Below, piece after piece: positions 3,660 to 32,554 of a stretch of 64,000 bases of DNA; within the stretch, counting starts at the first letter, position 1; each line of letters begins with the position of its first letter. The position numbers and the translations under genes are program-made. The notes below the pieces were generated by a model that saw only the letters and a program-made list of their open reading frames with translations, was not told the origin of the DNA and made no database searches. The DNA comes from Candidatus Bathyarchaeota archaeon (GTDB lineage: Archaea; Thermoproteota; Bathyarchaeia; Bathyarchaeales; Bathycorpusculaceae): the NCBI GenBank assembly GCA_963767735.1, contig CAVYES010000005.1:352001-416000 (forward strand). Reading direction: 5' to 3'.

Positions 3660-3705
3660 TGGACGGGGGGATTTGAACTCTCAGCAAAGTGGAGATGTCA
3701 CCCGC
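3660..3705 (-). repeat. Degenerate tRNA-Ala 3'-end copy plus 19-bp conserved site (att-like site A1)
   Basis: tggacggggggatttgaac-tctcagca-aagtggagatgtcacccgc. Confidence 0.8.
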
Positions 3706-8667: not shown

Positions 8668-8715
8668 TGGACTGGGGGGGATTTGAACCCCCGCCAAAGT
8701 GGAGATGTCACCCGC
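8668..8715 (-). repeat. Exact 26-bp copy of the tRNA-Ala 3' end plus 19-bp site (att-like site A2)
   Basis: 8668-8693 is identical to 12335-12360; aagtggagatgtcacccgc at 8697-8715. Confidence 0.92.
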
Positions 8716-12334: not shown

Positions 12335-12408
12335 TGGACTGGGGGGGATTTGAACCCCCGACCTCTTGAGTGCAAGTCAAGCGTTCATACCAGCTGAACT
12401 ACCAGCCC
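12335..12408 (-). tRNA. tRNA-Ala(TGC)
   Basis: Full cloverleaf: acceptor GGGCTGG/CCAGTCC with G3:U70, anticodon stem CTTGA/TCAAG with loop CTTGCAC, T-loop TTCAAAT. Confidence 0.96.
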
Positions 12409-16722: not shown

Positions 16723-18198
16723 TTATTTGTTTTTGTTGTTGTAGTCTGTTGTTAGCACGTTCATGGCGCTTAGCACTGCTTCCATGCTGGCTTTTACTAT
16801 GTCTTCGCGTACTCCTGTTGCTGTTACGGTTCGGTTTCCTTTGCGCATGCGCACGACGACTTCAACCATAGCGTCTGTGCCGCCGGTGATGGCTTTAACC
16901 ATGTACTGCTCCAGCGTGATGGGTTCGACTTCGGCTATGGCGTTTTTGACTGCATTTATTGCTGCGTCAACTGGTCCAACGCCGACCGCAGCGCCCCAAA
17001 CAACCTTGCCGTTCAGCGATAGACGCACGGACGCGGTTGCGGTAACTTTGTCACCACCGACAAAAGTCATTTCCTCAAGCCTTATCGATTTAGCCTTGCT
17101 TAAGCCCATAACGGCTTCGGCGATTGCCAGGACGTCTGCATCCAAGACTGTTTTGCCTTTGTCACCTAATTTTTTGATGCGCTGGAAAATTTCTTTAAAT
17201 TGTTCCTCAGATGGCTTAAGCCCCATGTTTTCTAAGTCTGCTCTGATGGCATGTGACCCTGAATGTTTTCCTGCAGATATGCGGCGAGTTGCACCAACCA
17301 ACTCGGGGGCAATCGGCTCATAGGTCAATGGGTTAACCAGCATTCCTTGAGTGTGTATTCCTGATTCGTGGGTGAAAGCGTTTTCGCCGACGATTGCCTT
17401 GTTGGGTTGTACGTGAACTCCGGTTAACCTTGAAACCAGCTGGGATGTGCCATAGATCAGTTCAGTTTTTATGTTTAAATCAAGTTTGTAGAGTGATCTG
17501 AGTGTAAGAACTATTTCTTCCAGTGAAGCGTTTCCTGCCCGTTCACCCAGCCCATTAATCGTTGCATGCACCTCTTCAGCACCCGCACCTAAAGCGGCAA
17601 CGGTGTTGGCGACAGCCATGCCGAAATCGTTGTGGCAGTGCACACCTATTGGAACTTTTATGATTTCTTTTAGTTTAGAGAAGAACTCGGCTGACCGCTC
17701 AGGAGTCAAGATGCCCACAGTATCACAGGGGACAACTCTGTCTACTCCAGCCTCAACCGCTATATGGAACGTCTCAGCTAGGAAATCAAAATCAGACCGA
17801 GTTGCGTCCTCAGCTAAAAACTCCACGATTAAGCCGTGATCTTTAGCGTACCTGACGCATTCATCTGTGACTTTGAGCATTTGTTGGCGTGTTTTGCGGA
17901 GTTTGCACTCTATGTGCAGGTCAGATGTTGGGATAATCATGCTTATAGTTGAAGCGCCGCTTTTTACTACGGCGTCGATGTCACTTTTTGTTCCTCTTGC
18001 GGCACTTGAGATTTGAGCCCTCAAACCCTGCTTAGCGATGAGGCTGACGGCTTCCATTTCGCCTTCGGAAACAGCGGCGAACCCCGCCTCGATAAAGTCG
18101 ACGCCGAGCTCGTCTAAGCGTTGAGCAATTCTTAATTTGCTTTCAGGTACAAGTGATACTCCGGGTGTTTGTTCACCATCGCGGAGGGTGGTGTCCAA
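16723..18198 (-). CDS. cimA: (R)-citramalate synthase / LeuA-family synthase; true start probably slightly upstream
   Basis: DTTLRDGEQTPG, HCHNDFG, GERAGN, HESGIH, LeuA allosteric domain; IIPTSDLH resembles CimA more than LeuA (FIATS). Confidence 0.75.
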   Translation of the reverse strand: MDTTLRDGEQTPGVSLVPESKLRIAQRLDELGVDFIEAGFAAVSEGEMEAVSLIAKQGLRAQISSAARGTKSDIDAVVKSGASTISMIIPTSDLHIECKLRKTRQQMLKVTDECVRYAKDHGLIVEFLAEDATRSDFDFLAETFHIAVEAGVDRVVPCDTVGILTPERSAEFFSKLKEIIKVPIGVHCHNDFGMAVANTVAALGAGAEEVHATINGLGERAGNASLEEIVLTLRSLYKLDLNIKTELIYGTSQLVSRLTGVHVQPNKAIVGENAFTHESGIHTQGMLVNPLTYEPIAPELVGATRRISAGKHSGSHAIRADLENMGLKPSEEQFKEIFQRIKKLGDKGKTVLDADVLAIAEAVMGLSKAKSIRLEEMTFVGGDKVTATASVRLSLNGKVVWGAAVGVGPVDAAINAVKNAIAEVEPITLEQYMVKAITGGTDAMVEVVVRMRKGNRTVTATGVREDIVKASMEAVLSAMNVLTTDYNNKNK

Positions 18199-18318
18199 AA
18201 ATTTTACGAGTTTAGGGAAGCGGTTGAATAAAGCAATACCCCACTTAAATCACATCTCTTTTCAAGGCGTCACGCTTAAATATAAAATTATTGGTGTCTT
18301 AACTGAGCAAAGAGGTTA

Positions 18319-19953
18319 ATGGATATGCGAAGTGACGAGATTAAACTTGGACCTGAACGGGCACCACACCGCGCCCTGCTTAAAAGTTTAGGTTTAACAG
18401 ACCAAGATATAGCTAAACCATTCATAGGAATAGCAAACAGTTACACGTCAATCGTTCCAGGGCACATTCACCTAAGAGCCTTAGGCGAAGCCGTGAAAGA
18501 AGGCATTTTGGAAGCCGGCGGAACACCCTTCGAATTCAACACCATAGCCGTATGCGACGGCATAGCGATGGGTCACGAAGGCATGCGATATTCGCTTCCA
18601 AGCCGCGAATTAATCGCAGATTCAGTAGAAATCATGATGCAAGCCCACCGTTTAGACGGTATGGTGCTGATTTCAAACTGCGACAAAGTCACCCCAGGCA
18701 TGCTTATGGCAGCAGCACGACTAAACGTGCCCGCAATATTGGTTACGGGGGGACCCATGGAGTCAGGCATACTGAACGGGCAAAAAGTCGGTGTCAACAA
18801 CGTTTTTGAAGCAGTCGGCAAAGTTTTCGCAGGCAAAATGACAGTGGAGGAATCGGCGATGCTGGAGAACGTGGCTTGTCCAGGCTGCGGCTCCTGCAAC
18901 GGCATGTTCACAGCCAACACCATGGCATGCATGACTGAAGCGTTAGGCATGTCTCTTCCTTACTGCGCTACGGCACTGGCGAATGGCGCATTGAAGCAGA
19001 GAATCGCAAAAGAAACAGGACAAAAAATCGTTGAACTCATCAAAAAAGACACCAAGCCCTCCCAGATAATGACTCAGAACGCTTTCGAAAACGCTGCAGC
19101 AGTTGACATGGCTCTTGGAGGCTCAACAAACACGGTTCTGCACCTCTCAGCCATAGCCAAAGAAGCAGGAGCAAAACTTGACCTCTCAACCTACGACGAG
19201 ATCGGACGGAAAGTCCCGCACTTATGCAACATGGTTCCAACAGGCTCTTTTGACATGGCAGACTTAGGAAATGCAGGCGGTTTGCCAGCCTTGATTAAAG
19301 AGCTTAAGCCGTTCGAGCATTTTGACGCTTTAACAGTTACGGGTAAAACGGTTGGCGAAAACGTTGCAGACGCCAAGGTGATAAACGCCGAAGTTATCCG
19401 CCCTCTGAGTAATCCAGTTCACAAAGAAGGCGGCATCGCCATACTCAGAGGCAACTTGGCGCCTCAAGGTTCGGTGGTTAAAATGGCGGCGGTCTCGCCT
19501 AAAATGATGAAGCATCAAGGTCCAGCAAAAGTTTACGATTCAGAACACCAGGCGGAAGAATCTATGAAACGCCACGAAGTGGTAGCTGGCGACATCGTGG
19601 TGATTCGTTATGAAGGGCCAAGAGGCGGGCCCGGAATGCCTGAAATGCTGATTCCCACAGCCACCATCGCGGGCATGGGTTTGAGCGAAAGCGTAGCCTT
19701 AATAACTGACGGCAGATTCTCCGGCGCGACTCGTGGACCATGCATCGGGCACGTTGCCCCTGAAGCCTTCGAAGGCGGACCAATCGCAGCACTTAAAAAC
19801 GGCGACAAAATAACCATCGACATCCCCAACAGACTTCTGAAAGTTGAGCTGTCAGACAAAGAGCTAAAAGAAAGGTTATCTGCGTGGAAGCCACGGAAAC
19901 CTAAAATTTCCAAAGGCTACCTAAGCAGATACTCACCTACCCCATCAGAATAA
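18319..19953 (+). CDS. ilvD: Dihydroxy-acid dehydratase
   Basis: [38 protein letters not shown]. Confidence 0.96.
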
Positions 19954-20035
19954 CCACAGAGAAACTTCGCAAAAGCAGACAGAATAAGATAAGCTTAATT
20001 CGCTCCCTTATCTGAAAGAATATGGGTAATAATTC

Positions 20036-20480
20036 TTGAGGAAAGAATTAGCGAGCAGTATCGAGATTAACGCCTCACCTGAAGAAGTTTGGTCGGTGCT
20101 TACGGATTTCGCAAAGTTCCCCGATTGGAACCCATTTATGCGCTGGGCAAAAGGTGAACTCAGAGCGGGGGCGAAACTTGAAGTGCGCATTCAGCCCACA
20201 GGAGCACGAGGGTCAACTTTCAAACCGACAGTACTCGTCGTTAATCCGCCCAGAGAGCTCAGGTGGATTGGTCATCTATGGATAAGCGGATTTTTCGACG
20301 GAGAACACATCTTAACAATTGAACCAATCGGAAACAACAATGCGCGCTTTGAACAAAAAGAAATTTTTAATGGGCTTTTTGTCAGGCTTCTAGCTGAAAA
20401 GCCTCGATAGAGACACACTTCGCGGCTTCAATGAAATGAATAAAGCGCTGAAGAAGCAAGTGGAACTCCACCCTAAATAA
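20036..20480 (+). CDS. SRPBCC/polyketide cyclase-like protein, frameshift near 20398
   Basis: IEINASPEEVWSVLTDFAKFPDWNPF; alternative frame ends SLDRDTLRGFNEMNKALKKQVE. Confidence 0.82.
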
Positions 20481-20697
20481 GACTTATTTAACACTCCAAA
20501 TCAAGCATTGCTTCACTTTACCGATGCCAAAAAATCACGTGCGCTTTAACTTATTTTGCTTGTTTAAGCGGTATTTCCGTTGATTGTGGTAGTGGCGCAA
20601 CTACTGCAAATGCTTTTACGGCGAAAACCGTTAATTTTTCTTACTATCCAGTTTTAATCTGCATATTGTTGTTTGGCGCGCAAAGTATGAATGTTGG

Positions 20698-21069
20698 TTG
20701 GAAGTGTTTTTTATGGTGTTAGTTGAAGGAATCGAAATCAAGATGAAAGCTAAGCCTATACACAAAAAACGGCTTGTTAAAGCCTGGAAAACTTTATCGA
20801 GTAAGCCGCTGCCTAAAGTTAAAGCACTCAAATTAAGCGATGAAGATTTTAACCATGTTATTCAGCGCAGGCACTGTTTTGAAGATGAATTGTGCGAGAT
20901 TGAGGAATGGGGCAGGGTTCTTTCAACCAGCGGCACGGATGCATGTGTGTTTAACGCTGAAGAAACCCGAGACGCCGACTACGTTATACTTGTGAGGCAA
21001 AACCCACACCACGGCTTAGATGAAATTATTCTTCATGAATTATCTCATATCGCCCGAGGAGACCTTTAA
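20698..21069 (+). CDS. Hypothetical protein with C-terminal HExxH motif
   Basis: IILHELSHI near the C-terminus. Confidence 0.55.
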   Translation: MEVFFMVLVEGIEIKMKAKPIHKKRLVKAWKTLSSKPLPKVKALKLSDEDFNHVIQRRHCFEDELCEIEEWGRVLSTSGTDACVFNAEETRDADYVILVRQNPHHGLDEIILHELSHIARGDL

Positions 21070-22019
21070 CCACCCGTCTTATTCATGATTCCTTCAGCAA
21101 ACAGCCTCAAGCCCTCAACGCTGGGCAAATCCCCAAAATAAAGCATAAAGCAAGTCACGCCAAGGTCAACATAAACCTGCAATTGCTCTCTGCACTGCTG
21201 AGCCGTACCCACCAAAGAAGTCTTCTTAAACTCTTCCAAAGTCAAACCCAAAACATTTTTTTGTGAAATTTTTTCGTTTACCTCACTTTCATCCTGACCA
21301 ATCAGCACCTGCCCACCTGGCCAGCAGGATTTCTCAATTTCGCCAAAATTTCTGCCAATCGCCCGACATTCCTTCTCTAAAACCTCAAGCTTGCACTTAT
21401 ACCGCTCAACAGAAGGCTGGAAGCCAAAGTCAAACCTGTTAGCATACGGAGCAGTCACTTTCCTCAGCAGCAGTTTGCCGCTGCCCCCTACGGTTATAGG
21501 CGGGTGAGGTTTCTGCAAGGGTTTGGGCTGACAAACTGCATCCTTCAGCGAATAATACTTCCCTTCGAAGTTTGCCTTGTCCTGTGTCCATAATTGCTCT
21601 ATAACCTCCAAAGACTCGACTAAACGGTTAATTCTAACGCTTGGTTTGGGATAATCAAACCCGTAAGCCGTGTGCTCCGCCTCTTGGATTCCTGCTCCAA
21701 TCCCAAACTCTAATCTGCCGTTTGAAAGCACATCAAACGTAGCAGCCATCTTCGCTAACAAAGCTGGGTTTCTATGTGCGCTGCAGGAAACCATGGTTCC
21801 AAGTCGTATTCTGCTGGTTAACGCTAAGAGTGCAGACAGGGTTGTCCAGGATTCAAGAATCGACCAATAATCATACATTAAATGGTCGTCAAGCCAAACT
21901 GAATGGTAACCTAAGCGTTCACACTCTAAAACAATGTCCCGAATGTGGCTGAAGCTTCCCTTATCTTTTGTTTGGAACGCGTAGAATGGAAGGAAGACTC
22001 CGAATTTTAGTTTGCCCAA
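21066..22019 (-). CDS. LLM-class (luciferase-like, probably F420-dependent) oxidoreductase
   Basis: SVWLDDHL, RIRLGTMV, RNPALLAKMAATFDVLSNGRLEFGIGAG, PKPLQKPHPPI. Confidence 0.9.
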   Translation of the reverse strand: MGKLKFGVFLPFYAFQTKDKGSFSHIRDIVLECERLGYHSVWLDDHLMYDYWSILESWTTLSALLALTSRIRLGTMVSCSAHRNPALLAKMAATFDVLSNGRLEFGIGAGIQEAEHTAYGFDYPKPSVRINRLVESLEVIEQLWTQDKANFEGKYYSLKDAVCQPKPLQKPHPPITVGGSGKLLLRKVTAPYANRFDFGFQPSVERYKCKLEVLEKECRAIGRNFGEIEKSCWPGGQVLIGQDESEVNEKISQKNVLGLTLEEFKKTSLVGTAQQCREQLQVYVDLGVTCFMLYFGDLPSVEGLRLFAEGIMNKTGG

Positions 22020-22107
22020 GCTAAGCTCCAGCCTGCTGACCCATAATTTAAAGGTTAATAAAATTGTTACCTATTGTTGTTTCTAAAACTAAATTTTTTC
22101 AACGACA

Positions 22108-23418
22108 TTAATCTAAAAATCTCGAAGCTATTTTAGCAGGCATATCCAGTTTAGCGCTTTTCTGAGTTTTCTTCTTCCAAACATACGCAAAGGCTATCAG
22201 AACCGCAACGAAGAGAACGGGTATGGCTATCAATAAAGATAACGAGACAAGCGGCGTCGAGGTAGGAGCCGTCGAGGTAGGAGTTGTCGTGGATTCGGTA
22301 GTTGTAGCATACATGCAATAGGCAATATCAGTGGTTGGTTCCGGCGGGTTTCCAGAGAAGCTTATGTGTGGGTTGCCATTGGAATCTAATACCATATTAT
22401 AGTCTGGTAGGGGGCCTACTTCTGAAGCGTTATTTGGGTCAACAGTTTGCGTGGCCCAAGCCTTGCCCGTCCATGTAGCATACAATAAAGTGCCTTCATA
22501 ATCTCCGTAAGTTTCCTTATAGTAGGCCACATGTGGGTTATTGTGCGAGTCTAACGCAAGATAGCCTGCATCTTCAGAATTGAAGTTTGAAGCCACTGTT
22601 TGAGTTTTCCAAGCGGAACCAGTCCAGCTGTCATACGTTAATGTTTCACCCTTGTAATAGGTAAAGTGCGGGTAACCGTTGGAGTCTAAGACCAGGTTTC
22701 CATAGTATCCGTCAATTATATTAGAGACTACGGTTTGTATACTCCAAGCTGATCCATTCCACACGGCATATTTGACGGATGTAGACGAGGCGTACCCGTT
22801 TTTAATAATGGTATAGTTGCCGCCGTAGAGGATGTATGGATTGTTGTTTGAATCTAATGCCAGATAGGCACCACTATTATTTCCTGAGTCTACTGTTTGG
22901 ATGCTCCAACTTGACCCTGTCCAACTTGCATATTTGAGGTCTCCATTACCTCCGAGGTACGCTACGTGCGGATTGCCTGCTGAATCGAGTGCAAGAGAAC
23001 CACAACTTCCCTGGAAAGGTAGGGTTTGGATAGTCCAGTTTACGCCTGTCCAGCTGGCATACATCAGGGCTGGAATTTCATTTATGTTACCCAGAAGCAA
23101 TACGTGAGGGTTGTTATGGGCATCTATTTTGAGGTCAATAGCCCAAGCATTTGGGGTTACAATTTGTGTGTTCCATGTTGAGCGGTTCAAGCTTGCATAC
23201 ATCAGATAAACTGTGTTTTGATAGTACCCGTTTTCATAGTCAGAATAGGCGATATATGGGTTATTATTAGAGTCGAGGGCAATTATGCCTCCGCCACTGC
23301 TGTCTTTGTCTACTGTTTGGATATTCCATGTCAAGGCAGCATGAGCTGGAAGCACCGAGCAGAAAGACACCAACAAGATGAATAGAAGAAGAAAACTCAA
23401 CAACACACAAACTCGCAT
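22108..23418 (-). CDS. Secreted, C-terminally anchored beta-propeller repeat protein
   Basis: About 7 repeats of LALDSxxNPHxxY...LxYAxWxGxxWxxQTVD; signal peptide; T/P linker and TM helix. Confidence 0.8.
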   Translation of the reverse strand: MRVCVLLSFLLLFILLVSFCSVLPAHAALTWNIQTVDKDSSGGGIIALDSNNNPYIAYSDYENGYYQNTVYLMYASLNRSTWNTQIVTPNAWAIDLKIDAHNNPHVLLLGNINEIPALMYASWTGVNWTIQTLPFQGSCGSLALDSAGNPHVAYLGGNGDLKYASWTGSSWSIQTVDSGNNSGAYLALDSNNNPYILYGGNYTIIKNGYASSTSVKYAVWNGSAWSIQTVVSNIIDGYYGNLVLDSNGYPHFTYYKGETLTYDSWTGSAWKTQTVASNFNSEDAGYLALDSHNNPHVAYYKETYGDYEGTLLYATWTGKAWATQTVDPNNASEVGPLPDYNMVLDSNGNPHISFSGNPPEPTTDIAYCMYATTTESTTTPTSTAPTSTPLVSLSLLIAIPVLFVAVLIAFAYVWKKKTQKSAKLDMPAKIASRFLD

Positions 23419-23518
23419 TTTTGTGGCTACCTCGTCAAAGCACTAAAACAGCTTATAATTTTGCAACTATAAAAAATTATGCAAATCTTCATTTGGGCGG
23501 CTTTATCATAGCAAGTCA

Positions 23519-24971
23519 TCATTTAGTGGGTACTTGTTTCCTTACGTCTTTTCCTCTTATGATGGATAATACGCCTGCAATTGCCAGGATTATTATTGAT
23601 GCGTAAAATGCGTGGTCTATGCCTGATATGAATGTTTGGCTGACGCCGCCTGTGAGGCTTTTGGTTCCGATAAACACTTCGAATGCTACATACCTGGGTA
23701 TTGAGGCTGCTGCAACTGAGATTGCTAAAACGTAGCTTCCGACTAATCCGATGTTTTGCACCATTCGCAGCAAGCCTGAGATGCTGCCAAACGATCCTGT
23801 TCTTGCATTTGCCATGACGGCGCTGTTGTTGGCTGGGAAGAACATGGAGGTTCCTAAGCCGGAGACTGCTGAAGCGAAAAGCACGATGTAGAGCGGCGAG
23901 GTTGCACCCATTGTTAAGTAAATCAGTATGGCGACGGCTAAGAAGAATATTCCCAGTGTAGCGATTTCTCTTGAACCGTACTTGTCGGATAATCTGCCCA
24001 TTATTGGACCAAGAAAACTGCCTGCCACATATCCAGGAACCAGCAGTAAAGAAGCATTCAGCGGCGTCAACGCTCTTATTCCCTGCAGATACATTATCAC
24101 GAGGAACACTACGGAGAAGTAGCCGATACTTACAAATAACGCTGAAAAGATTGCGTTCCGCAGAACCCTGTTTTTGAAGGCTTCAAAATCAATCATGGCA
24201 TTTTTAATCCTGCGATCATACAATATGAAAACAGGTATCAGCACCGCGCCAATTACTGATAAAGTGACGTTTAAGGAGTTGATTCCGTTTGAAGCAAAAT
24301 TTACTAATCCCAAAGAGAGCAGTACCAATGCTGCGGCAAGCAGGCCCATTCCAGCCAGGTCCAATTTGGCAGGTGTTTTTTCGGTGTCCTTTATGTATTT
24401 TAAGCCCGCTATCACCGCGATTATGCCGATTGGGATGTTTATGAAAAAGATGTACTGCCAGCTAACGTAGGTGGTGATTATTCCTCCTAAAACGATGCCA
24501 AGCATTGCTCCAGCCGTAAAGCCAAGCGAATTGTAACCGTATGCTCTGCCGCGTCTTTCTCTGGGAAAATAGTCAGCTATTATGGCTCCGCTGGTTGCTT
24601 GCAGAAGGGCTCCGCCTGCCGCCTGAATTGTTCGGAAGCCTATGAGAAGATAGATTTGACGGTGAGAAACCGCAGAGGGCTGAGCCGACTGTGAAGATTA
24701 CGAAGCCTAAGTTGAATATTTTGCTTCTGCCGAAGATGTCTCCTATTCTTCCCATCTGCGCGGTTGCAACGGCGAGAACAAGAAGATAAGCAAGAATAAT
24801 CCACAGAGACGTTGACAGGTCTGAGTGGAGCTTGTCATTTATGGTTGGAAAAGCCAGCAGAACGATTGTACTGTCAAGCGCACCCATGAGAGTTCCAAGC
24901 ATCACGATGGCTAACACTATATTGCTGTGTCTTCCAGGGCTAGAAATCGGTTTGCCGGGTGCTTCTTGCAT
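23519..24971 (-). CDS. MFS transporter (DHA2/EmrB-QacA type), frameshift near 24655
   Basis: [40 protein letters not shown]; two ORF halves. Confidence 0.88.
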
Positions 24972-25157
24972 TCAATTCACCGTTAGCTACCTTTCTTTTG
25001 GAATCGTATTGTTAATTAAAATTTACTTGGTTCCTTTAAAAATATTAACTAATTTACTGAGGTAGACAACTAAAAACATAGAGTTTCTTAAGTTAAAAAG
25101 TGTATTGATTGGAGACAATAAACTGCAAAACCAGAGGATAAGTAATTATCCTATAGG

Positions 25158-25176
25158 AAGTGGCGATGTCTCCCGC
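25158..25176. repeat. 19-bp conserved site, B-type copy
   Basis: aagtggcgatgtctcccgc followed by aaacccctttttctt, as in other copies. Confidence 0.8.
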
Positions 25177-25287
25177 AAACCCCTTTTTCTTTAAGTATAC
25201 TTAGCGAAATAGTCAAAAGGTGATAAGTATTGGAATCGAAAATCGTTAATTGCCTTAGGAGCAAGCTTGATTTGAGAGATAAGAGTG

Positions 25288-26397
25288 CTATAGTTTTTTA
25301 AAGTCTTCCAATGCCTTCTTGAGATCCATTGCCGCGTTGAAAGATAGATCGTCAGTGTCGTATTCAATTCTTTTTAAGCCCTTAAGGTTTGGAGGCAGAT
25401 CTACTTTTCTCTCAACCAACAGAACAACCTGCGTATTGTATTTCAGATAGGCCGCATCGATTTCAGAGGTTACATTTGAATTAAGGATGTAGATTCCGCT
25501 GTACCTTCGCTCCTGTTCAGCGGCAGCGATGTTTATTATTGCACAATCACAGTCTTGCATCAACCCGAATTTATTTTCAGAAATTGGCACAGTTGTTTCT
25601 TCTTTATCGCCCATGACGTAGTCATAATGCAGAAAATCCAACATTTTCTTCACCTGGTCAGAAACTTGGGTGCTGCTATTAGATATGAAGACACGAGGTT
25701 TCAGACCTTCTTTTTGGGGCTCATTTGGCGCTCTTTCAACAAAAGGTGCTGTTTTAGTCACTTGGTCGTCAATTACATATGCAGGTGGCGCCTCAAAGGT
25801 GACTGGTAAGCTTGCAAGGTTTTTAATCCTGGCAGCATAGCGCTTATTCATTAGTTCATTTATGCGTAGCAGCTGAAGTTCAATTCCATTTTCCAATGCT
25901 GTTATTTTTCCCTCTAGAGCGGTGTCATCAAAATCGGGTGCTACAATTATGCCCTTTTGTGCTCTTCCGTTTACTAGCACTTTGACAAAGGCTTCAACAT
26001 CAGCCAAGCGGACAGGATCGGATTGTTTAATCAAAAGAGGTTGACCTCCCTCGGTAAACCCGCTTACGCCTGTAGCTGGGTCGCTTGGTTTGCCATTGAA
26101 TTTTTTTATTACCCGGTCTTCGAAGTCACTGGAGGAAACTCCGCCATTTAGACTCTTTTCATTCCTCCTTTTCTTAAAAACAAATACAAAAGTGACAACA
26201 ACAACTACTGCTACAACCGCTATGATTCCGCCAATAAGTAATAAGGCAGAGGTACTTCCAAGTATTCCTGCTTTGGTTGGGGTTGGCTGTGTCGTTGAGC
26301 TTGGTGTTAATGTTTGGCAATAGGATATTTGCGGAAGGACTACAACTAAAAAAAAGAAACACGCTATAATAGTGGCTACTAGGAATTTTTTATTCAT
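25288..26397 (-). CDS. Membrane-anchored protein with degenerate Mrr-like domain and C-terminal TIR-like nucleotide-binding domain
   Basis: Signal peptide plus TM helix; DFEDRV...GVSG...IKQS...KGIIVA (Mrr-like); RVFISNS...DCDCAII...NVTSEIDAA...VVLLVERKVDLPPNLKGLKRIEY (TIR-like). Confidence 0.72.
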   Translation of the reverse strand: MNKKFLVATIIACFFFLVVVLPQISYCQTLTPSSTTQPTPTKAGILGSTSALLLIGGIIAVVAVVVVVTFVFVFKKRRNEKSLNGGVSSSDFEDRVIKKFNGKPSDPATGVSGFTEGGQPLLIKQSDPVRLADVEAFVKVLVNGRAQKGIIVAPDFDDTALEGKITALENGIELQLLRINELMNKRYAARIKNLASLPVTFEAPPAYVIDDQVTKTAPFVERAPNEPQKEGLKPRVFISNSSTQVSDQVKKMLDFLHYDYVMGDKEETTVPISENKFGLMQDCDCAIINIAAAEQERRYSGIYILNSNVTSEIDAAYLKYNTQVVLLVERKVDLPPNLKGLKRIEYDTDDLSFNAAMDLKKALEDFKKL

Positions 26398-26625
26398 GAT
26401 TTTGCATTCCTTTGATGTGGATAATGTTTAACTTCCCGACCATAGGTAAATACCTACTGTGAATGGAAGGTTATTGGTATATCGCCTTAAAAAACTATTG
26501 AAAAGAAATGCCTAGTCTCAAATTCAGCTTTCGAGTACTCGTTGTCAATTTTTGTTTACGAAAGCAATGAGAGCGATACTCTAGTTTCTCAGAAATCGCT
26601 CGGTCTACAGTTTTCATTCATTGTA

Positions 26626-26673
26626 GTGTAGAGGGTGGATTTGAACCTTTACCGAAGTGGAGATGTCACCCGT
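26626..26673 (-). repeat. Degenerate tRNA T-arm fragment plus 19-bp site (att-like site A3)
   Basis: gagggtggatttgaac-ctttaccg-aagtggagatgtcacccgt. Confidence 0.78.
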
Positions 26674-26723
26674 AATCCCATTTTCTTGCGCAGGTTCTAT
26701 GCCGTCTTTTTTTCCTTTGAGGC

Positions 26724-27143
26724 TTAGTTTGATGACCTATTTCGTCGGTTTTCGATATATATTCGTTGTCCGTTCAGCATATATCCGATTCCCAGTAAGA
26801 TGAGAATGAACTCGCCGGCTGTAACGGCAGGTGGAGGGGCAACTGTGAAGAAAAACTTTGCTTGATCGGCGGGCGCGGTTAAGAAAATTAGTGCAGCGTC
26901 GATTACCGCCAAGACGCCAGCGACTCTTGGTCTTCGCCACAGAGAGACCAGCCCTGCAATCGGAAGCAACAACCCCACTGTCACAAAAAATACTGCGAAC
27001 CAAAGGGTCCGTATCTCGTTCTCGCGGGTCTCAAATCCCAATGGAGTTAACAGGAAGCCCACAACGAATCCCACCACAAACAAAACTGCCAATATCCGCT
27101 TTGTGTCCCCCAAAGAAGCCTTTGCGTCAAAAAATGAAGCCAT
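26724..27143 (-). CDS. Hypothetical membrane protein (about 4 TM helices)
   Basis: 139-aa hydrophobic ATG ORF. Confidence 0.65.
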   Translation of the reverse strand: MASFFDAKASLGDTKRILAVLFVVGFVVGFLLTPLGFETRENEIRTLWFAVFFVTVGLLLPIAGLVSLWRRPRVAGVLAVIDAALIFLTAPADQAKFFFTVAPPPAVTAGEFILILLGIGYMLNGQRIYIENRRNRSSN

Positions 27144-27549
27144 AAAAAATCACTTAAAGAATCTGTAAGTTAATCACTAATTAAAGCGTTTAGATGCGAT
27201 ACTACTAACGAGATGTAAGTGATAGCTGTAGGGGAACAGCTTGAATTAAAAGTTGAAATCACATTGACTCCTTGTGCGACTTGTTGCGAACCTCCTCTTC
27301 AAAACGCAAAATGGCCGAGACTATGAGTTACTGCTACCACACCTGATGAGATTCTAGCTTTAGGAAAGGCTTGCTGGCAAAAATACGCTGAAGCGACTTT
27401 TAACGGTTTGACAATGCATTTCTACCGAAAGCCCAAACGTTTCGGAATCTTCAAAAATATAGAGGATAAGTCCCAGACTATGGGGATAAGTAATTATAAT
27501 TCGTAAACCGTATTTTTAGATTAAACCGCTTCCAGTCGTGGTTCTCTAT

Positions 27550-28119
27550 ATGCCCGAGAAAGACGCTTCTTACGTTGACATATTCGGCTTGTTATCGGAA
27601 GAGAGCCCTGAGCAGGCAAAAAAGAAGCGCAGGCAAGAGCTTTTGGAGCCAACAGGCGTAAAAGAACTATTCAAGGAAGGAAACATAAGCGTGAACAAGT
27701 TTACGTGCGCTGGCGTGCAATGCAAGTTATGCGTTAAAGCTTGCCCAACAAACGCTTTGTACTGGGGAAGTGGCGGAGTAGGAATCACCGAGGACTTGTG
27801 CGTTTACTGCGGCGCTTGCGTCCTTAACTGCATGGTTGATGACTGCATAAAAATCGAACGAACACGGGAAGACGGCAAAGTTGAACTCTTCAGCAAACCG
27901 CAAGACGTTATCAAGCTTGGAGAAAAAATTAACGGAAAGAAACGTTTTGACCGCGTGAAAGCAATTTTCCCAACAGTTGACGCCTACTGCGAAAAATGCC
28001 CCCCGAAGACAGAAAACATTAACCTATTTTTAGAAAAATCTGCTATCAACAGGAATGCCGATGAGCAAAAGCATCAGTTTAGAAAACCCAGTACGCGAAG
28101 GCAACCCAAGAATGAGTAA
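27550..28119 (+). CDS. 4Fe-4S dicluster ferredoxin-domain protein
   Basis: CAGVQCKLCVKACP and CVYCGACVLNC. Confidence 0.85.
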   Translation: MPEKDASYVDIFGLLSEESPEQAKKKRRQELLEPTGVKELFKEGNISVNKFTCAGVQCKLCVKACPTNALYWGSGGVGITEDLCVYCGACVLNCMVDDCIKIERTREDGKVELFSKPQDVIKLGEKINGKKRFDRVKAIFPTVDAYCEKCPPKTENINLFLEKSAINRNADEQKHQFRKPSTRRQPKNE

Positions 28120-28133
28120 AACTTACAAAATAA

Positions 28134-29297
28134 TCACGGAACTTTAGGCGGCATGATTGAGACGGCCGTTGCACTTCGAGTAGATAACTCCATTTTATCT
28201 CCAAAACCCTTTTTCACATACGCGTTTTCCAAGAACAATTTGTCACCAATCTTTAATCCACTAAGGGCTTCTGCGTGTTGGCGCCAAGCTGAAATCCGAA
28301 CAGTGCCAGTCTCGTCTTTTAGCTCAAAAACCGTTAGCTTCACGGTTTCACCTTTGGACGTGTTTACTTCTTTGTTTTCAGGAACCGTTGAAACTACCCC
28401 TTCAACGTCGGCGATTTGGTTCTCAGTCAGGTTGGCTATTTTCGTTAACTGCGGTGCAACAGCTTGAACGCTAATAAAACTGGTGAAGTCAACGTGAACT
28501 TCTATGGTGCCGTTTTGGGTTTCTTTCACTTTAGCGTTACCCAATTGCAAACACGCGTTCGCTTTGAGGGTTTTTTCTAATTCTTGGGCTTTTTCATTCC
28601 AAGCAACCACCGTAACTTCTCCAGAATCATCCGCTAAAGTGAACCGCATAACTGTTCCATCACTTTGATCGTTTCGGGTGAACTTGGTTGAGCCTAAAAC
28701 CGATTTTACAGTGCCTGAAAGATGCACATTCCCCACTGTTTTATTTAGGGAATTTATTTTGGTGGCGAACTTGTCGATGGCTGGGTATTCGCTGGCTTTT
28801 TCTTGAGGCTCCACTTCAATTTGGCTTTTGCCACCAAGATGCAACTCCACTTTGGCGTAACGATCTTGTCGCGTATATCCGTGAAGAAGCCGAACTGCCT
28901 GTCCAACTTTCAACTCGCCCTTCTCAACCAAATCAGCCTTATCATTCCACAACACCACACGCACAATACCGTCGCTGTCAGCAACCATTAACGTCGCAAA
29001 TTTGCCAGGTTTTTCTCCTTCAAAAGTTCGCGCTGGAAAAACCGCGATTAACCGACCAGCCACCGTAACATCGTTTAAGCCAGCAAACAAGCGGCTTGTC
29101 GATAACGTTCCACTGTTGCGAATTGTATTTTGCTGTACCTCAACGCCGTATCTGGCGGCGATTAATCTCAGAAGCGTTTCGTCACCAAGCAGACCCCCCG
29201 TTCTGGATTTTTCCACATGTAATTTCTCGAGAATTTGCTCTTTGTTGATTTCTGGGTTTTTTGCAAGAATTTTGTCGATTATGTCTTGGATGGTCAT
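28134..29297 (-). CDS. rpa: Replication protein A (multi OB-fold ssDNA-binding protein)
   Basis: Three OB folds (VADSDGIVRVVLW, LADDSGEVTVVAW, LKDETGTVRISAW). Confidence 0.85.
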   Translation of the reverse strand: MTIQDIIDKILAKNPEINKEQILEKLHVEKSRTGGLLGDETLLRLIAARYGVEVQQNTIRNSGTLSTSRLFAGLNDVTVAGRLIAVFPARTFEGEKPGKFATLMVADSDGIVRVVLWNDKADLVEKGELKVGQAVRLLHGYTRQDRYAKVELHLGGKSQIEVEPQEKASEYPAIDKFATKINSLNKTVGNVHLSGTVKSVLGSTKFTRNDQSDGTVMRFTLADDSGEVTVVAWNEKAQELEKTLKANACLQLGNAKVKETQNGTIEVHVDFTSFISVQAVAPQLTKIANLTENQIADVEGVVSTVPENKEVNTSKGETVKLTVFELKDETGTVRISAWRQHAEALSGLKIGDKLFLENAYVKKGFGDKMELSTRSATAVSIMPPKVP

Positions 29298-29412
29298 TTT
29301 GCGCCGACACGATTAAGATATTCTGGGCTTTTAATTTTTTGCATTCTCTCAACAACGTTGCTATGTTTATTAAAAACGCAGTTCCATCTTAGCTTGGAGC
29401 GCTGAAGACAAA

Positions 29413-29679
29413 GTGGATCTTGCAGTTTTCTATGCCTCCGGAATAGCGCTGGTGGCAGTGGGAATCATCATTATTGTTGCAGCGATTATTTTGGTTTCCG
29501 CACGTGGGGCTGGAAAGGGTAAGGGTAAGGTCAAGGCTGCGGGTGTGATTATGATTGGTCCTATTCCGATAATTTTTGGGACAGATAAGAAATCAGTTAA
29601 GTCCGTTTTGGCGCTTGCTTTGGCGCTAACTATAGTGCTTGTGGTAGCTACGGTGATATATTACTGGTTGCTGAGGTAA
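29413..29679 (+). CDS. DUF131/TIGR00304 membrane protein
   Basis: AAGVIMIGPIPIIFGTD. Confidence 0.85.
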   Translation: MDLAVFYASGIALVAVGIIIIVAAIILVSARGAGKGKGKVKAAGVIMIGPIPIIFGTDKKSVKSVLALALALTIVLVVATVIYYWLLR

Positions 29680-29685
29680 ACTTTC

Positions 29686-29976
29686 GTGTTAATCGAGCAG
29701 GAAGATGAGGAGGAAGGCATAACAATATCCAGTAGACTTTTTGGTTTTTTGATTTTGGGAATTGCCTTAGTTTTCGTTGGCATAGTGGTTTTGGTGGTTG
29801 TTTCGGTGTTCTTAGGCGGTTCAGGAAGTGTTGGGGTTGTTGTTTTTATAGGTCCATTTCCAATTGTTTTTGGATCCGGGCCAAATGCAACTTGGCTTAT
29901 CCTCTTAGGCATAATTATTGCTGTTGTAAGTGTATTGGTTTTTTGGGTTATGAATAGAAGGTTCGATTGGCTTTAA
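29686..29976 (+). CDS. DUF131 membrane protein (second copy)
   Basis: GVVVFIGPFPIVFGSG. Confidence 0.8.
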   Translation: MLIEQEDEEEGITISSRLFGFLILGIALVFVGIVVLVVVSVFLGGSGSVGVVVFIGPFPIVFGSGPNATWLILLGIIIAVVSVLVFWVMNRRFDWL

Positions 29977-29996
29977 AAAATTAAGAAGGAGGGGTT

Positions 29997-30119
29997 TTAC
30001 TCGTTTACTATCTCTTCATCTTTACCGTAATACCCGTAGAGAAAGATAAGAATTAAAGCGACAAATATTGAGCCCATTAATAGGTATTCTAAAGTTGTGA
30101 AGTATGCTCCAATGTCCAT
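29997..30119 (-). CDS. 40-aa single-TM microprotein
   Basis: Manual translation MDIGAYFTTLEYLLMGSIFVALILIFLYGYYGKDEEIVNE; fills the intergenic gap and is followed by a pyrimidine-rich tract. Confidence 0.55.
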   Translation of the reverse strand: MDIGAYFTTLEYLLMGSIFVALILIFLYGYYGKDEEIVNE

Positions 30120-30163
30120 AGAGATTCTCCCTGATTTTTACTTATTCTTGTGCGTCTTAATAT

Positions 30164-30574
30164 TTAAGGAGTAGCTTTTTTCCACTCATTCATCAACATA
30201 TCATAGCACTCGTCAGTTTCCTCTATGATTTCAAACCAGCCTAGATTCTGCGCGACCTTCTGCGTTAACAGATGATAACACATGTGAACCTTCTTGTCTA
30301 ACACTCGAAAATAGAAATCGTCGCAGGTGCAAAATTCAGCTTCAGGCATAATTAGGTAGTCGCGTTCTCTGCCGACAACTATCCAGACGGTTTTTCCGCT
30401 CGGCTTGAAATTGTATTTTTTCACTCGGTTCTCTTTTAGGGCGTCAAGGGCTTTTGTGAATCTTGACCCGAAAAGCTCGTAGAGCTCGGTTAGGTTGTTG
30501 CCTGACAGTTTGCCTGCTGATTTTGCTTCTCTACAAATAGCGTTTAACGTATCTATCTCTGAATTATCGCTCAT
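30164..30574 (-). CDS. SWIM zinc-finger protein
   Basis: FCTCDDF...CYH motif. Confidence 0.85.
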   Translation of the reverse strand: MSDNSEIDTLNAICREAKSAGKLSGNNLTELYELFGSRFTKALDALKENRVKKYNFKPSGKTVWIVVGRERDYLIMPEAEFCTCDDFYFRVLDKKVHMCYHLLTQKVAQNLGWFEIIEETDECYDMLMNEWKKATP

Positions 30575-30619
30575 TATACACTCGCAACTGGAAAGATTAG
30601 GGAAAATTGGATTTTGGCT

Positions 30620-31219
30620 TCAGACTATGTCGATTGGTTCTCCCTTAGGCTTAGTTTCCGCTTCAGCCTTGGGAAGCACCACTTCTAAGACGCCGTTTTT
30701 GTAGCTTGATTTTGCTTCTTTAACCTTTACTTTAACTGGTAACTCAACTTCCTTGAAGTACTTGTTCTGAGCAGTATCAACCGAAATCGTCAGCGAATCT
30801 TCCGTGCCGTGAAGTTTTATGTCGCCTTTTTCTACACCCGGAAGCTCCGCAACCACGTGGATTTCACCGTTTGTTTCAACAATGTCAACCAGTGGCTCGC
30901 GTTCGTCTTTAACCTGGGGCGCACCTTTGAGGCCCTTTTTTATGTTTCCAAACTCCTGAATCTCAGGTTTGCCGTCTGGACCAATCTTCATGCTGTAACC
31001 ATAAACGAAGGGACCAAGCTCCTTAACTGTGCTGCCATCGGGAAGTTTCCGCTCTTTCACGTATTCTTTAGGCACTTTCTCAGTGAAATCTTTCAGCTCT
31101 TCATCCATCATCTTTTCCATTTCACGAAACATGTCATCTATGTCACCGAAAAACGGTTCTTTCGCCTTTCTCTTCTTTGACCATTCAGGGGAATCCTCAT
31201 TATCAGAAGACATATACAC
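30620..31219 (-). CDS. hsp20: Archaeal small heat-shock protein Hsp20
   Basis: GPFVYGYSMKIGPDGKPEIQEFGN, EPLVD, AELPGVEK, YKNGVLEV. Confidence 0.94.
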   Translation of the reverse strand: MYMSSDNEDSPEWSKKRKAKEPFFGDIDDMFREMEKMMDEELKDFTEKVPKEYVKERKLPDGSTVKELGPFVYGYSMKIGPDGKPEIQEFGNIKKGLKGAPQVKDEREPLVDIVETNGEIHVVAELPGVEKGDIKLHGTEDSLTISVDTAQNKYFKEVELPVKVKVKEAKSSYKNGVLEVVLPKAEAETKPKGEPIDIV

Positions 31220-31410
31220 TCACCACAATACCTTGCGTTTTCCGCTCCAATAAATTTTATGCAATGAAAACGCTTATTTCATGCTGCTGACAGGAGCTTT
31301 TCCATTATTTTTTAGTGAATGAGCCGCAAGCAAAACTTAATCGTGCCTTTAAAAGTTTAAATCACTGAAAATAAACTAAATGACAGCAGCTAGCAAAAAA
31401 GTCGCAATTT

Positions 31411-31545
31411 GCCGGGGTAGCCTAGCCTGGCTAGGGCGCCAGACTCATAATCTGGTAAAAACACACAATCCAGATGAGAAATCTGGAGACTTAGGGGCTA
31501 AACGTCCAAAGCCAGAGGTCGCGGGCTCGAATCCCGCTCCAGAAA
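31411..31545 (+). tRNA. tRNA-Met(CAT), elongator-like, with two introns (about 31450-31480 and 31489-31517); 3' acceptor strand does not pair, so possibly a pseudogene
   Basis: GCCGGGG 5' strand, D-arm, CCAGA-CTCATAA-TCTGG after splicing, BHB-like junctions; T-loop CTCGAAT; 3' strand TCCAGAA instead of CCCCGGC. Confidence 0.75.
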
Positions 31546-31728
31546 CAGAATTAACGTCTGTTTCGGCGAACGGCACCAATTCGAGCCTAACTACCCACAA
31601 AATCGGCAAACCAAGCAAATTGATAACACCATTGATAACAAAACCGCAAAAATTGCTCGACCGCAAAAGCTAACAGTCGAAGACAGGAAAAATTTATTTT
31701 TCGCAATCTTAAATGAAGGTAGACAGCC

Positions 31729-32554
31729 ATGACACAGAATGAAGACGAATTCTATAAATCCTTTAACGATTGGCTAATCAATGAAAAAAAGATAGGCTCT
31801 AAAGTCGCTTACGAATATGTGCGCTTGAGTCGGCAATTCATGGCTAAAGCTAAAGATTTGACTGGCATTGATGGTATAAACATCGAAGACAAAATAAACG
31901 ATTTTCTAAACATTGAAAACCCCAATAGCTACAGAAACAACTTAGCAGCGATAAAGAAACTTTTTGAATTTGTCGGACAGCCCCAGCTTATGCAGAATTT
32001 CAAATAAAAGGTAATCATGCCAACTTTCAGCATAAAAACACCCAGCTTGGAAGATATGGTAAAATTCGGCAAGGCAATTGAGAATGAACAGATTCACGTC
32101 TATTATATTCTTGGAGTAGTTAGCGCAATCCGTCCAGAGCACTTATTGAGATTAAGGGTAAAGCTGTTTGACAAAAACAACAACATGATTAATACATGGA
32201 TGAAAACTTTCGGCAAAAAAACTTTTTCTTCTCATTCTACACGGCAGAGACTAAAACATTGATTGAGGAATTCATAAGCCATATACCTGATAATCAAGTG
32301 CTTTTCCCGATTGGCAAACGCTATATTTGCAAAGAATCGAAAAGGCATCTAACAAAAGCGGTGTTAAAATCGTGCCTAAAATGATGCGTAAATTCACTAC
32401 TAACTGGTTTAGAAGGCATGGCATGATTGAGGAAGACGTTAACGTTATTACTGGTCACACTCCGCAATCAATCATAGCTAAATATTACATGGACGTTTCA
32501 CGCATTCATGAAGAATATGACCGAGCCACAACAGACTTGAAACTTCTTTCCTAA
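31729..32554 (+). pseudogene. Tyrosine recombinase/integrase, archaeal tRNA-targeting (SSV-like) type, disrupted
   Basis: Joined fragments contain SAIRPE, PKMMRKF, ITGHTP and AKYY catalytic motifs; in-frame TAA at 32005-32007 and two frameshifts. Confidence 0.85.

Follow-up and report, generated by a model that had tools for sequence, protein, structure and literature searches.

What does a single archaeal gene do when it joins a membrane anchor to a degenerate Mrr-like nuclease fold and a TIR-like domain? We addressed this question for such a gene in a 64,000-nucleotide stretch of DNA (the window, by which we mean this whole stretch) from the 3.04-Mb genome of a soil archaeon of the Bathyarchaeia, in which a whole-genome search found the gene in one copy. 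In bacteria, plants and animals alike, TIR NADases have a central part in immunity, and bacteria use TIR domains to destroy NAD+ during virus attack; to our knowledge, little is known of TIR NADases in archaea. A full-text literature search yielded no paper linking Bathyarchaeia with a TIR domain, and one on Mrr-like, TIR and transmembrane effectors yielded none on this fusion, as judged by the listings. The architecture of the protein is well supported. By analogy with known systems, we propose with a little less than an even chance that it is a stand-alone, membrane-tethered, oligomerisation-activated TIR NADase effector, and any role in defence would follow by the same analogy. The gene and its parts are as follows, with an open reading frame abbreviated as ORF and transmembrane as TM.

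25288..26397 (-): whole gene, 369 amino acids plus stop, an uninterrupted ORF by its translation
26317..26397 (-): residues 1-27, putative signal peptide (MNKK, hydrophobic core, ISYC) from the sequence, helix 3-25 in the model
26248..26316 (-): residues 28-50, predicted extracellular stalk rich in Thr, Ser and Pro, 23 amino acids with no folded ectodomain, from the sequence
26176..26247 (-): residues 51-74, predicted TM helix A51-F74, then KKRR, from sequence and model
25804..26142 (-): residues 86-198, Mrr-like domain of PD-(D/E)xK fold with degenerate catalytic positions, from structure search and residue counts
25699..25803 (-): residues 199-233, poorly conserved, low-confidence linker with gappy alignment columns (pLDDT 28-48)
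25291..25698 (-): residues 234-369, TIR-like domain, CAP12/PycTIR/TIR-STING clade, carrying F237, S241, N308 and E312, from profiles and fold matches

All three N-terminal parts named in the original prediction, a signal peptide, a Thr/Pro linker and a TM helix, are present in the 369-residue protein, and the strings it quoted lie at G110-V111-S112 (GVS), L122-I123-K124 (LIK) and N308-VTSEIDA-A316 (NVTSEIDAA). Residue counts refer to a 123-member alignment (P0001-P0123) that includes the best 120 of 175 homologue matches and two long forms. Those best 120 are all full-length-like and 57-99% identical, and their source names are mostly Bathyarchaeota/Bathyarchaeia or Nitrososphaerota archaeon, with two rows bearing bacterial names. 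At the N-terminus, MNKK is followed by 17 hydrophobic residues, ISYC and then Q28; C27 is kept in 110 of the 123 homologues and Q28 in 119, and the signal peptide is probably cleaved before the near-invariant Q28. Alternatively, it may stay as an uncleaved first TM helix forming a hairpin, which would leave the topology unchanged. The stalk reads QTLTPSSTTQPTPTKAGILGSTS, and this stretch is 14-30 residues long in 119 of the 123, absent in two, and 160 and 252 residues long in the two long forms. Since the TM helix is followed by KKRR, the positive-inside rule would place the remaining 290 residues in the cytoplasm, giving a type-I membrane topology with cytoplasmic C-terminal domains.

Sequence searches of solved structures gave little: the whole protein had no match at E <= 10, the family profile found only eL21 (E 0.1) and TM look-alikes, and the middle-domain profile found only TM segments of type-I receptors. 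We describe the two folded domains from models. The whole-protein AlphaFold model, made with 43 homologues, is confident only for residues 90-200 and gives the TIR half a pLDDT of 37-68, and a second domain model of the TIR half, made from a 109-sequence alignment, reached a pLDDT of 89.9 and a pTM of 0.86.

In Foldseek searches with the TIR domain, TIR-STING chains came first (E 1e-6 to 1e-4; 9lmq at E 1e-6 and 7un8 at E 1.7e-5), followed by TIR-1/SARM1, SPARTA TIR-APAZ, DNPH1 and MilB. The VIA comparison gave SfSTING 7un8_A (Z 13.5, rmsd 3.4, 126 residues aligned) and 9lmq_A (Z 12.9), with both TIR-STING chains ahead of plant and animal TIRs. As modelled, the domain adopts a TIR (flavodoxin-like) fold, close to solved members. 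The Pfam family PF10137 (CAP12-PCTIR_TIR) matches 40 of 43 family members at E <= 0.01 (best 2.1e-6), and distant relatives that align to residues 213-369 at E 1e-28 to 1e-33 score 55-72 bits on it. The window protein itself falls below the cut-off while these relatives pass, so that its family membership rests on transitive homology; the match nevertheless runs over the whole profile, and the TIR-like call of the original prediction was right. The nearest TIR relatives match the PADLOC PDC-S35, CBASS 'Effector TIR' and PycTIR models.

The glutamate that the original prediction had noticed in NVTSEIDAA was confirmed as the putative catalytic residue E312. This position holds Glu in 116 of the 123 proteins, Ala in six and Thr in one; it is the invariant Glu of the 109-sequence TIR alignment, stands at the start of model helix 82-95, and aligns, at a weak E of 0.13, with the Glu of the NVHLEFG motif of PycTIR 8jsj. 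For SfSTING, PMC9402430 names F6, S10, R78, N80 and the catalytic E84 as pocket residues, and the window protein has a pattern F-x3-S ... N-x3-E with the spacing of F6, S10, N80 and E84. The corresponding positions are highly conserved, with Phe at 237 in 121 of the 123, Ser at 241 in 122 and Asn at 308 in 110. This equivalence is drawn from motif spacing and the near one-to-one residue ranges of the structural match (model 8-144 to chain 2-146) rather than from a superposition, and with respect to the residues named there the domain appears to have kept its catalytic Glu and most of the pocket.

For the middle domain, the pLDDT is 82-90 and the order of secondary structures is alpha-beta-beta-beta-alpha-beta, which is that of PD-(D/E)xK nucleases. 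The top VIA-align match was 1y88_A (AF1548; Z 9.9, rmsd 2.5, 96 aligned), followed by FokI (8.9), R.BspD6I (8.4) and NucS (8.2), with modification-dependent enzymes and Can2/Card1 nucleases lower down, and the top Foldseek rows were EndoMS and EcoT38I (E 0.008-0.015). The modelled domain has the PD-(D/E)xK core fold, and the Mrr-like assignment of the original prediction holds. At the sequence level, Pfam Mrr_cat (PF04471) gave no match to the window protein at E <= 10 and matched one of 43 family members (E 0.0032), and the relative P0218 passes it with 25.3 bits against a cut-off of 21. The catalytic motif of Mrr_cat consists of an Asp and (Q/E)xK. The Asp position (112) is occupied by Asn in 71, Ser in 27, Thr in 15 and Asp in only ten of the 123 proteins; the Q/E position (122) is Leu in 120, and the Lys (124) is kept in 55. 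The window protein has S112, L122 and K124. By these residues the domain is catalytically degenerate, as originally proposed, with a non-Asp residue (Asn, Ser or Thr) at the Asp position in 113 of the 123. Both long forms, P0122 and P0123, are among the ten members with Asp at 112, and the nuclease site has therefore decayed within the TIR-fusion family.

Among known systems, the TIR-STING effectors of CBASS (Cap12; SfSTING 7un8, and 9lmq) provide the closest solved fold for the C-terminal domain of the protein. Both share the F...S and N-x3-E active-site pattern, and the expected logic is alike, with a sensor domain driving assembly and thereby a TIR NADase. Unlike TIR-STING, the window protein has no STING domain or nearby cyclic-dinucleotide synthase, is membrane-anchored and archaeal, has Asn in place of the pocket residue R78, and shares only 14-16% sequence identity. 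PycTIR, the Pycsar effector (8jsj), belongs to the same Pfam family, PF10137, via transitive homology, and the two align over NxNV..E.(G/N)AA...LPSN; in contrast to PycTIR, the window protein lacks a cyclic-nucleotide-binding domain and a pyrimidine cyclase and remains below the PF10137 cut-off. The PADLOC candidate single-gene system PDC-S35, on which the full-text literature gave no paper, is matched at 1e-9 to 1e-12 by the nearest TIR relatives (41-47% domain identity, with a TIR behind an N-terminus of unknown type), whereas the window protein (E <= 10) and P0067, P0122 and P0123 (E <= 0.01) do not match it, and its N-terminal half is entirely different. Domains of the Mrr/AF1548 type share the fold of the middle domain but not its loss of catalytic residues or its position as a cytoplasmic tail behind a TM helix. 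Animal Toll-like and IL-1 receptors resemble the window protein in architecture only, being type-I proteins with a cytoplasmic TIR, and P0122 and P0123 have an ectodomain as well; unlike these receptors, the window protein has no leucine-rich-repeat or Ig ectodomain, carries an extra Mrr-like domain between membrane and TIR, and its TIR is of the enzymatic prokaryotic clade; no homology is implied.

The statement of the original prediction that no cyclase gene is nearby was upheld: none was found among the scanned window neighbours, and PADLOC cyclase models matched none of 64 neighbours in seven loci. A cyclic-nucleotide sensor domain (STING, SAVED or CNBD) fused to the TIR was not found either, the only other folded domain being the PD-(D/E)xK one. 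Based on the analogy with TIR-STING, PycTIR and TIR-SAVED, the TIR domain would be inactive as a monomer. Sensing or assembly would fall to the dead Mrr-like domain: on the cytoplasmic side of the membrane it could bind a nucleic acid, a nucleotide or a partner and cluster the protein in the membrane plane. TIR-TIR packing might then complete a composite active site, as described for SfSTING (PMC9402430), and NAD+ or a related nucleotide would be hydrolysed, leading to growth stop or a signal. In SfSTING, the neighbouring TIR contributes D110 to that site. Against a virus or another invader, this course of events may amount to a response of the abortive-infection type. A two-copy complex prediction for residues 85-369 scored 0.01 against a mark of 0.42, which counts neither for nor against binding.

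The distribution of the gene is that of an accessory function. Of 33 distinct genomes from the window's genus that were searched in full, 10 carry the two-domain gene (G000, G005, G007, G010, G012, G021, G024 and G335, as well as G321, with residues 73-369, and G019, where the gene lies in two pieces at a contig end). The remaining 23, including G003 and G014, each a single contig and 96-97% complete, gave no two-domain match. There was likewise none in 16 genomes from 11 other families of the order, in 145 genomes from 69 other genera of the family, or in 286 genomes of the class outside the genus, draws that overlap with one another; only single-domain matches were found outside the genus, in G159, G182, G137, G161 and G296. 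Apart from the gene itself, no window ORF of at least 100 amino acids between 14 and 40 kb had a match (E <= 1e-10) lying no farther than about 10 kb from the homologue in six other genomes of the genus. These searches show, or at least strongly predict, that the gene is accessory and limited to one genus of Bathyarchaeia, in about one-third of its genomes. The original prediction had regarded a universal, syntenic gene lacking NADase activity as evidence against it; the gene is instead patchy, non-syntenic and not universal.

There is a weak hint that the gene is transcribed. Contigs from RNA libraries (three runs from two studies, 95-100% match) are confined to 25522-26438, that is, to the ORF and at most 41 nt upstream, whereas contigs of a DNA run also span the flanks of the gene. 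The hint is weak because it consists of contigs and DNA may contaminate such libraries, and a gap in contigs proves nothing.

Several observations weigh against an antiviral NADase effector. The window protein scores 18.2 bits on PF10137 (E 0.0026, profile positions 1-118 of 119) against a cut-off of 24.7, and PADLOC and NCBIfam gave it no match (no PADLOC family at E <= 10). The catalytic Glu is replaced by Ala or Thr in 7 of the 123 otherwise well-kept homologues, and position 306, which corresponds to R78 among the pocket residues of SfSTING, is Asn in all 123. A scan of viral contigs found no homologue of the two-domain gene. When PADLOC was run on the 64 neighbours in seven loci, the two matches were both generic (an oxidoreductase and a DEAD-box helicase), and the originally proposed defence role finds no support in the neighbourhood. 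The neighbours of the homologues are housekeeping genes encoding aconitase, OMP decarboxylase, transketolase, transaldolase and asparagine synthase. Scanning species-representative genomes yielded 37 other loci, which overlap with the six genus-genome loci and cannot count as independent evidence beside them. A shared downstream block, present in 13 of 38 loci and chiefly in those of more distant homologues, comprises a 230-aa membrane protein, aconitase (12 loci) and OMP decarboxylase (10). Finally, DNA identity in two genomes is 76% and 74% for the gene and 74% and 73% for the housekeeping block, a pace of divergence suggestive of vertical inheritance with ordinary constraint and not of an arms race.

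Two neighbours were considered as partners and set aside. The 230-aa membrane protein has only a 38% relative, elsewhere in the window genome, and a 139-aa membrane ORF upstream does not travel with the gene. A gene of the SLOG/LOG family ('lysine decarboxylase-like') lies about 330 nt upstream of one homologue on the same strand (L017:8824-9405, +); it occurs in one of seven Pfam-scanned loci, and its cluster is not among the neighbour families found in at least 4 of 38 loci. In some defence systems, TIR and SIR2 have SLOG domains as partners that process nucleotides.

The strongest competing explanation, which we consider rather unlikely, is that the protein is a non-immune signalling or scaffold protein of a lineage-specific family of type-I surface proteins with Mrr-like tails. 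Its TIR would then be an adaptor for assembly or a regulated hydrolase of nucleotides, working in the normal physiology of the envelope or surface. It draws on the distribution of the Mrr-like module itself. Among 150 representative clusters listed, three have both domains (the family's own cluster, P0122 and P0123), 27 have the TM and Mrr-like part only, 115 the TIR only, and five are N-terminal fragments. Two of the 27 are fragments of the TIR-fusion family, leaving 25 true tail-only proteins. In these 25, the module stands at the extreme C-terminus behind the TM helix, with 0-7 residues after it, and consists of a TM helix, KKR and an Mrr-like domain with GIDG and KQSD (for example P0152, P0156, P0174, P0185, P0218 and P0229). 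GIDG is kept in 21 of the 25, most of which also have h-x-h-K-Q-S-D. Their ectodomains, after signal peptides, comprise CXXCXGXG (DnaJ-type) zinc-finger repeats, Ig-like or propeller-like domains and Thr/Pro stalks, in proteins of up to 871 amino acids, P0229 (871 aa) being an example of a long form with the Mrr-like tail. In the members scanned, the tail domain had no curated Pfam or NCBIfam family of its own. Longer fused forms were not found at E <= 1e-10 among proteins of 647-2000 amino acids, a negative of little weight. The long TIR fusions P0122 and P0123 have a signal, an ectodomain (160 and 252 amino acids), a Thr/Pro stalk, a TM helix, an Mrr-like domain with Asp and Lys kept, and the TIR, and the window protein is a 'headless' derivative of a receptor-like protein such as these.

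Because surface proteins of diverse kinds commonly have the Mrr-like module as their cytoplasmic tail, the module may work in assembly or transduction instead of sensing DNA, and the earlier idea that the protein is positioned to detect incoming DNA was not supported. The housekeeping neighbours with the chromosomal block common to 13 of 38 loci, a divergence rate equal to that of housekeeping genes, and the loss of the Glu in 7 of 123 homologues would also fit a non-immune role. However, the gene is missing from close relatives and, being present in only about one-third of the genus genomes, cannot be essential; its att-like flanks and integration hot spot, described below, are what accessory cargo typically shows; the closest relatives of its TIR look like defence candidates; and the window genome has no second protein with an Mrr-like tail that could act as a partner. 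The related idea of an adaptor, in which a dead Mrr domain would pair with Mrr-tailed surface proteins, was rejected for the lack of this second tail in the window genome and for a loose co-occurrence across genomes.

A bolder possibility, which we regard as improbable, is that these proteins form an undescribed archaeal outside-in receptor system, with the window protein as its 'headless' member. Its members would be built of ectodomains, a TM helix and the Mrr-like domain (GIDG...KQSD), which would transduce clustering at the cell surface and, in the fused branch, drive the TIR enzyme. The result would be a Toll-like layout (ectodomain, TM helix, TIR) that evolved independently in Bathyarchaeia and could possibly sense viruses at the envelope.

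It is also conceivable, though we find it quite improbable, that the C-terminal domain is not an NADase but an N-glycosidase acting on another nucleotide, as MilB, BcmB, DNPH1 and nucleoside 2-deoxyribosyltransferases do, or simply a nucleotide binder. Such enzymes are indeed among the fold matches (MilB 4ohr at Z 11.5, 2-deoxyribosyltransferases at Z 10.9-11.0, and DNPH1/RCL), and the residue that replaces R78 throughout the family corresponds to one that contacts the NAD+ phosphates in SfSTING. Yet TIR-STING chains are the best matches by both structural methods (E 1e-6; Z 13.5 and 12.9), ahead of MilB, and the sequence homology is to PF10137, PycTIR and CBASS TIR models, not to deoxyribosyltransferase families.

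The surroundings of the gene bear on a further explanation, namely that the gene is not a host defence but a selfish, toxin-like addiction cargo that stabilises an integrative element targeting tRNA genes. The flanking features in the window are as follows.

26398..26647 (-): upstream region that other genomes conserve along with the gene, comprising promoter and 5' end of the unit, from the flank alignment
26626..26651 (-): decayed tRNA 3'-end copy (T-arm GGTTCAAATCC and acceptor-like tail), at the place of the relatives' tRNA-Leu(UAG) 3' end
26654..26679 (+): motif site A3, a pattern match that abuts the tRNA-like fragment just outside the conserved unit
25157..25182 (+): motif site B, a pattern match 106 nt past the stop codon and at the syntenic place in two gene-less relatives
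26724-27143 (-): the 139-aa ORF, with several hydrophobic stretches and unmatched in Pfam, NCBIfam and PADLOC, between site A3 and the point near 27336 where synteny breaks off

In all 37 other loci, nucleotide similarity to window positions 18000-32000 is confined to 25252-26672, and the 95%-identical L023 matches the window over 25252-26636 only. As the similarity ends so close to the gene, the gene travels with about 110-275 nt of upstream and at most 36 nt of downstream sequence. In closer relatives, the flank alignment places the unit directly after a tRNA-Leu(UAG) gene. Of 13 loci scanned with Rfam, 5 (L027, L029, L031, L034 and L047) have an intact tRNA of 85 nt whose end lies 143-235 nt ahead of the start codon, and two of these tRNAs are Leu(tag) by ARAGORN. 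At 40-70 nt past the stop, the closer relatives carry the T-arm and acceptor 3' end once more, with an exact 24/24 copy at +54 in L023. A loose T-loop pattern detected tRNA 3'-end copies upstream in 13, downstream in 11 and on both sides in 8 of 38 loci. With a strict 24-mer (at most 6 mismatches, ungapped) the numbers were 11, 6 and 4, against a background of 19 matches in 836 kb, some of which are real tRNAs. In L032, about 3.7 kb separate a tRNA pair from a further 3'-end copy that precedes the gene. The window locus retains only the decayed upstream tRNA fragment, and direct repeats on both sides are seen in relatives. The flanking tRNA-Leu 3'-end copies look like att sites, in a sequence pattern resembling integration into a tRNA gene. 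In closer relatives the gene forms a discrete unit bounded by tRNA-Leu(UAG) 3'-end copies, which is new, and it is strongly predicted to move as a 1.3-1.4-kb unit associated with tRNA-Leu att-like repeats.

The locus itself also appears to accept foreign DNA. In two relatives without the gene (G003 and G013), synteny runs from about 31.3 kb down to 27336-27366 and then ends, and the 12.5-22 kb block and the site-B region (87% identical) follow only after unrelated DNA, which measures 39.6 kb in G003 (C1:1680249-1719860, part of which is L021:8250-19001) and about 8.3 kb in G013 (L022:7503-15832). In the stretches scanned, most ORFs of this DNA have no Pfam family and one encodes a resolvase-type helix-turn-helix protein. 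No counterparts were found in G000 for 10 of 13 of these ORFs from G003 and for all six from G013, and the inserted DNA of G013 carries three more A/B-type sites. The inserts are probably integrated elements or proviruses. Since gene-less relatives have unrelated, ORFan-rich DNA at this place, the gene sits in an integration hot spot. Nearby in the window, a major facilitator superfamily (MFS) transporter is split into two ORFs (23519-24505 and 24573-24971, -) with an N-terminal part of 132 and a C-terminal part of 328 amino acids, probably a frameshifted or broken gene; together with a BNR-repeat surface protein (22108-23418), it has no DNA match at the syntenic place in G003.

The compact unit between att-like repeats and the hot spot with its ORFan-rich inserts are what a selfish cargo would be expected to show. 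However, no integrase was found in the unit, nor did an antitoxin or other element gene travel along; the viral contigs scanned did not carry the gene, and many loci have no att-like flank, so that we hold this explanation to be very improbable. That the protein is instead an active Mrr-type nuclease, and with it a membrane-bound restriction enzyme, is barely credible: the fold is nearest to AF1548, FokI and type IV enzymes and the Atlas neighbours are Mrr_cat clusters (scores 0.87-0.89, leads only), but the family has lost the Asp in all but ten and the Q/E in 120 of 123 members, keeps the Lys in 55, and the window protein, with Ser at the Asp position, lacks any Mrr_cat match at E <= 10.

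The gene was originally described as carried between two motif sites, B and A3. Both sites are real and do bracket the gene in the window, but they do not do so generally: of the other 37 loci, L026 alone is flanked by sites on both sides, making two of 38, and single sites lie at 0.7-3.8 kb from the gene in L052, L041, L032 and L057. Because the sites lie outside the unit and rarely bracket the gene elsewhere, their arrangement here is taken as a local accident of the hot spot, and the sites not as the vehicle of the gene. The repeats that flank the gene more often than the A/B sites are the tRNA-Leu(UAG) 3'-end copies.

The A/B motif is nonetheless well defined. Its 26-nt pattern has 3 matches against 0.00 expected, and its 18-nt core occurs at seven sites in the window (3689, 3776, 8699, 8788, 25160, 26657 and 44061, +); of nine genome matches of the motif, seven are in the window, and all seven strong profile matches are in the window. 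The core is a pseudo-palindrome, GGnGA-N2-TCnCC, within sites of about 35 nt, and in A and B types T and A are swapped at two symmetric variable positions. An RNA explanation was rejected: with no Rfam match and half-sites too close for a hairpin, we read the motif as a pseudo-palindromic DNA site. At 3.7 and 8.7 kb, an A and a B site form a pair with a spacing of 87-89 nt. Short inverted repeats, whose sequence differs between copies, enclose the B sites, and A-type sites always adjoin a tRNA 3'-end-like fragment. At A3 this fragment is tRNA-Leu-like; beside the A site at 8.7 kb, positions 8668-8693 are an exact 26-nt copy of the 3' end of tRNA-Ala(TGC) (12335-12408, -), and beside that at 3.7 kb, positions 3665-3678 are a 14-nt remnant of the same end. 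From these sequence features, we read the A/B sites as putative arm sequences belonging to a different family of elements that target tRNA genes.

Over 194 nt, the two A-B units share 86% identity, and they precede two paralogous surface proteins of about 1000 amino acids with PQQ-like propeller matches (5509-8430 and 9085-12081), which are 60% identical; a DDE transposase lies at 3904-5085. The tRNA-Ala copies and the paired A-B units look like att remnants plus a segmental duplication. Elsewhere in the window, a tRNA with a long insertion (31415-31540, +, 126 nt) was detected by Rfam alone, at its gathering score (29.1 bits); ARAGORN did not find it and reports only 42 tRNAs in the genome, none of them for Phe or Tyr. 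Many tRNA genes in the window genome probably carry unusual introns.

If active, the protein would be a one-gene, membrane-tethered TIR effector that uses a dead nuclease fold as its sensor and has no second-messenger synthase, and its simplicity would make it well suited to studying what triggers TIR assembly. The occurrence of the Mrr-like tail on many archaeal surface proteins raises the question of signalling or anchoring across the envelope. Through its att-like tRNA-Leu flanks, the locus also exemplifies how a single accessory gene is kept at an integration hot spot by an uncultured lineage.

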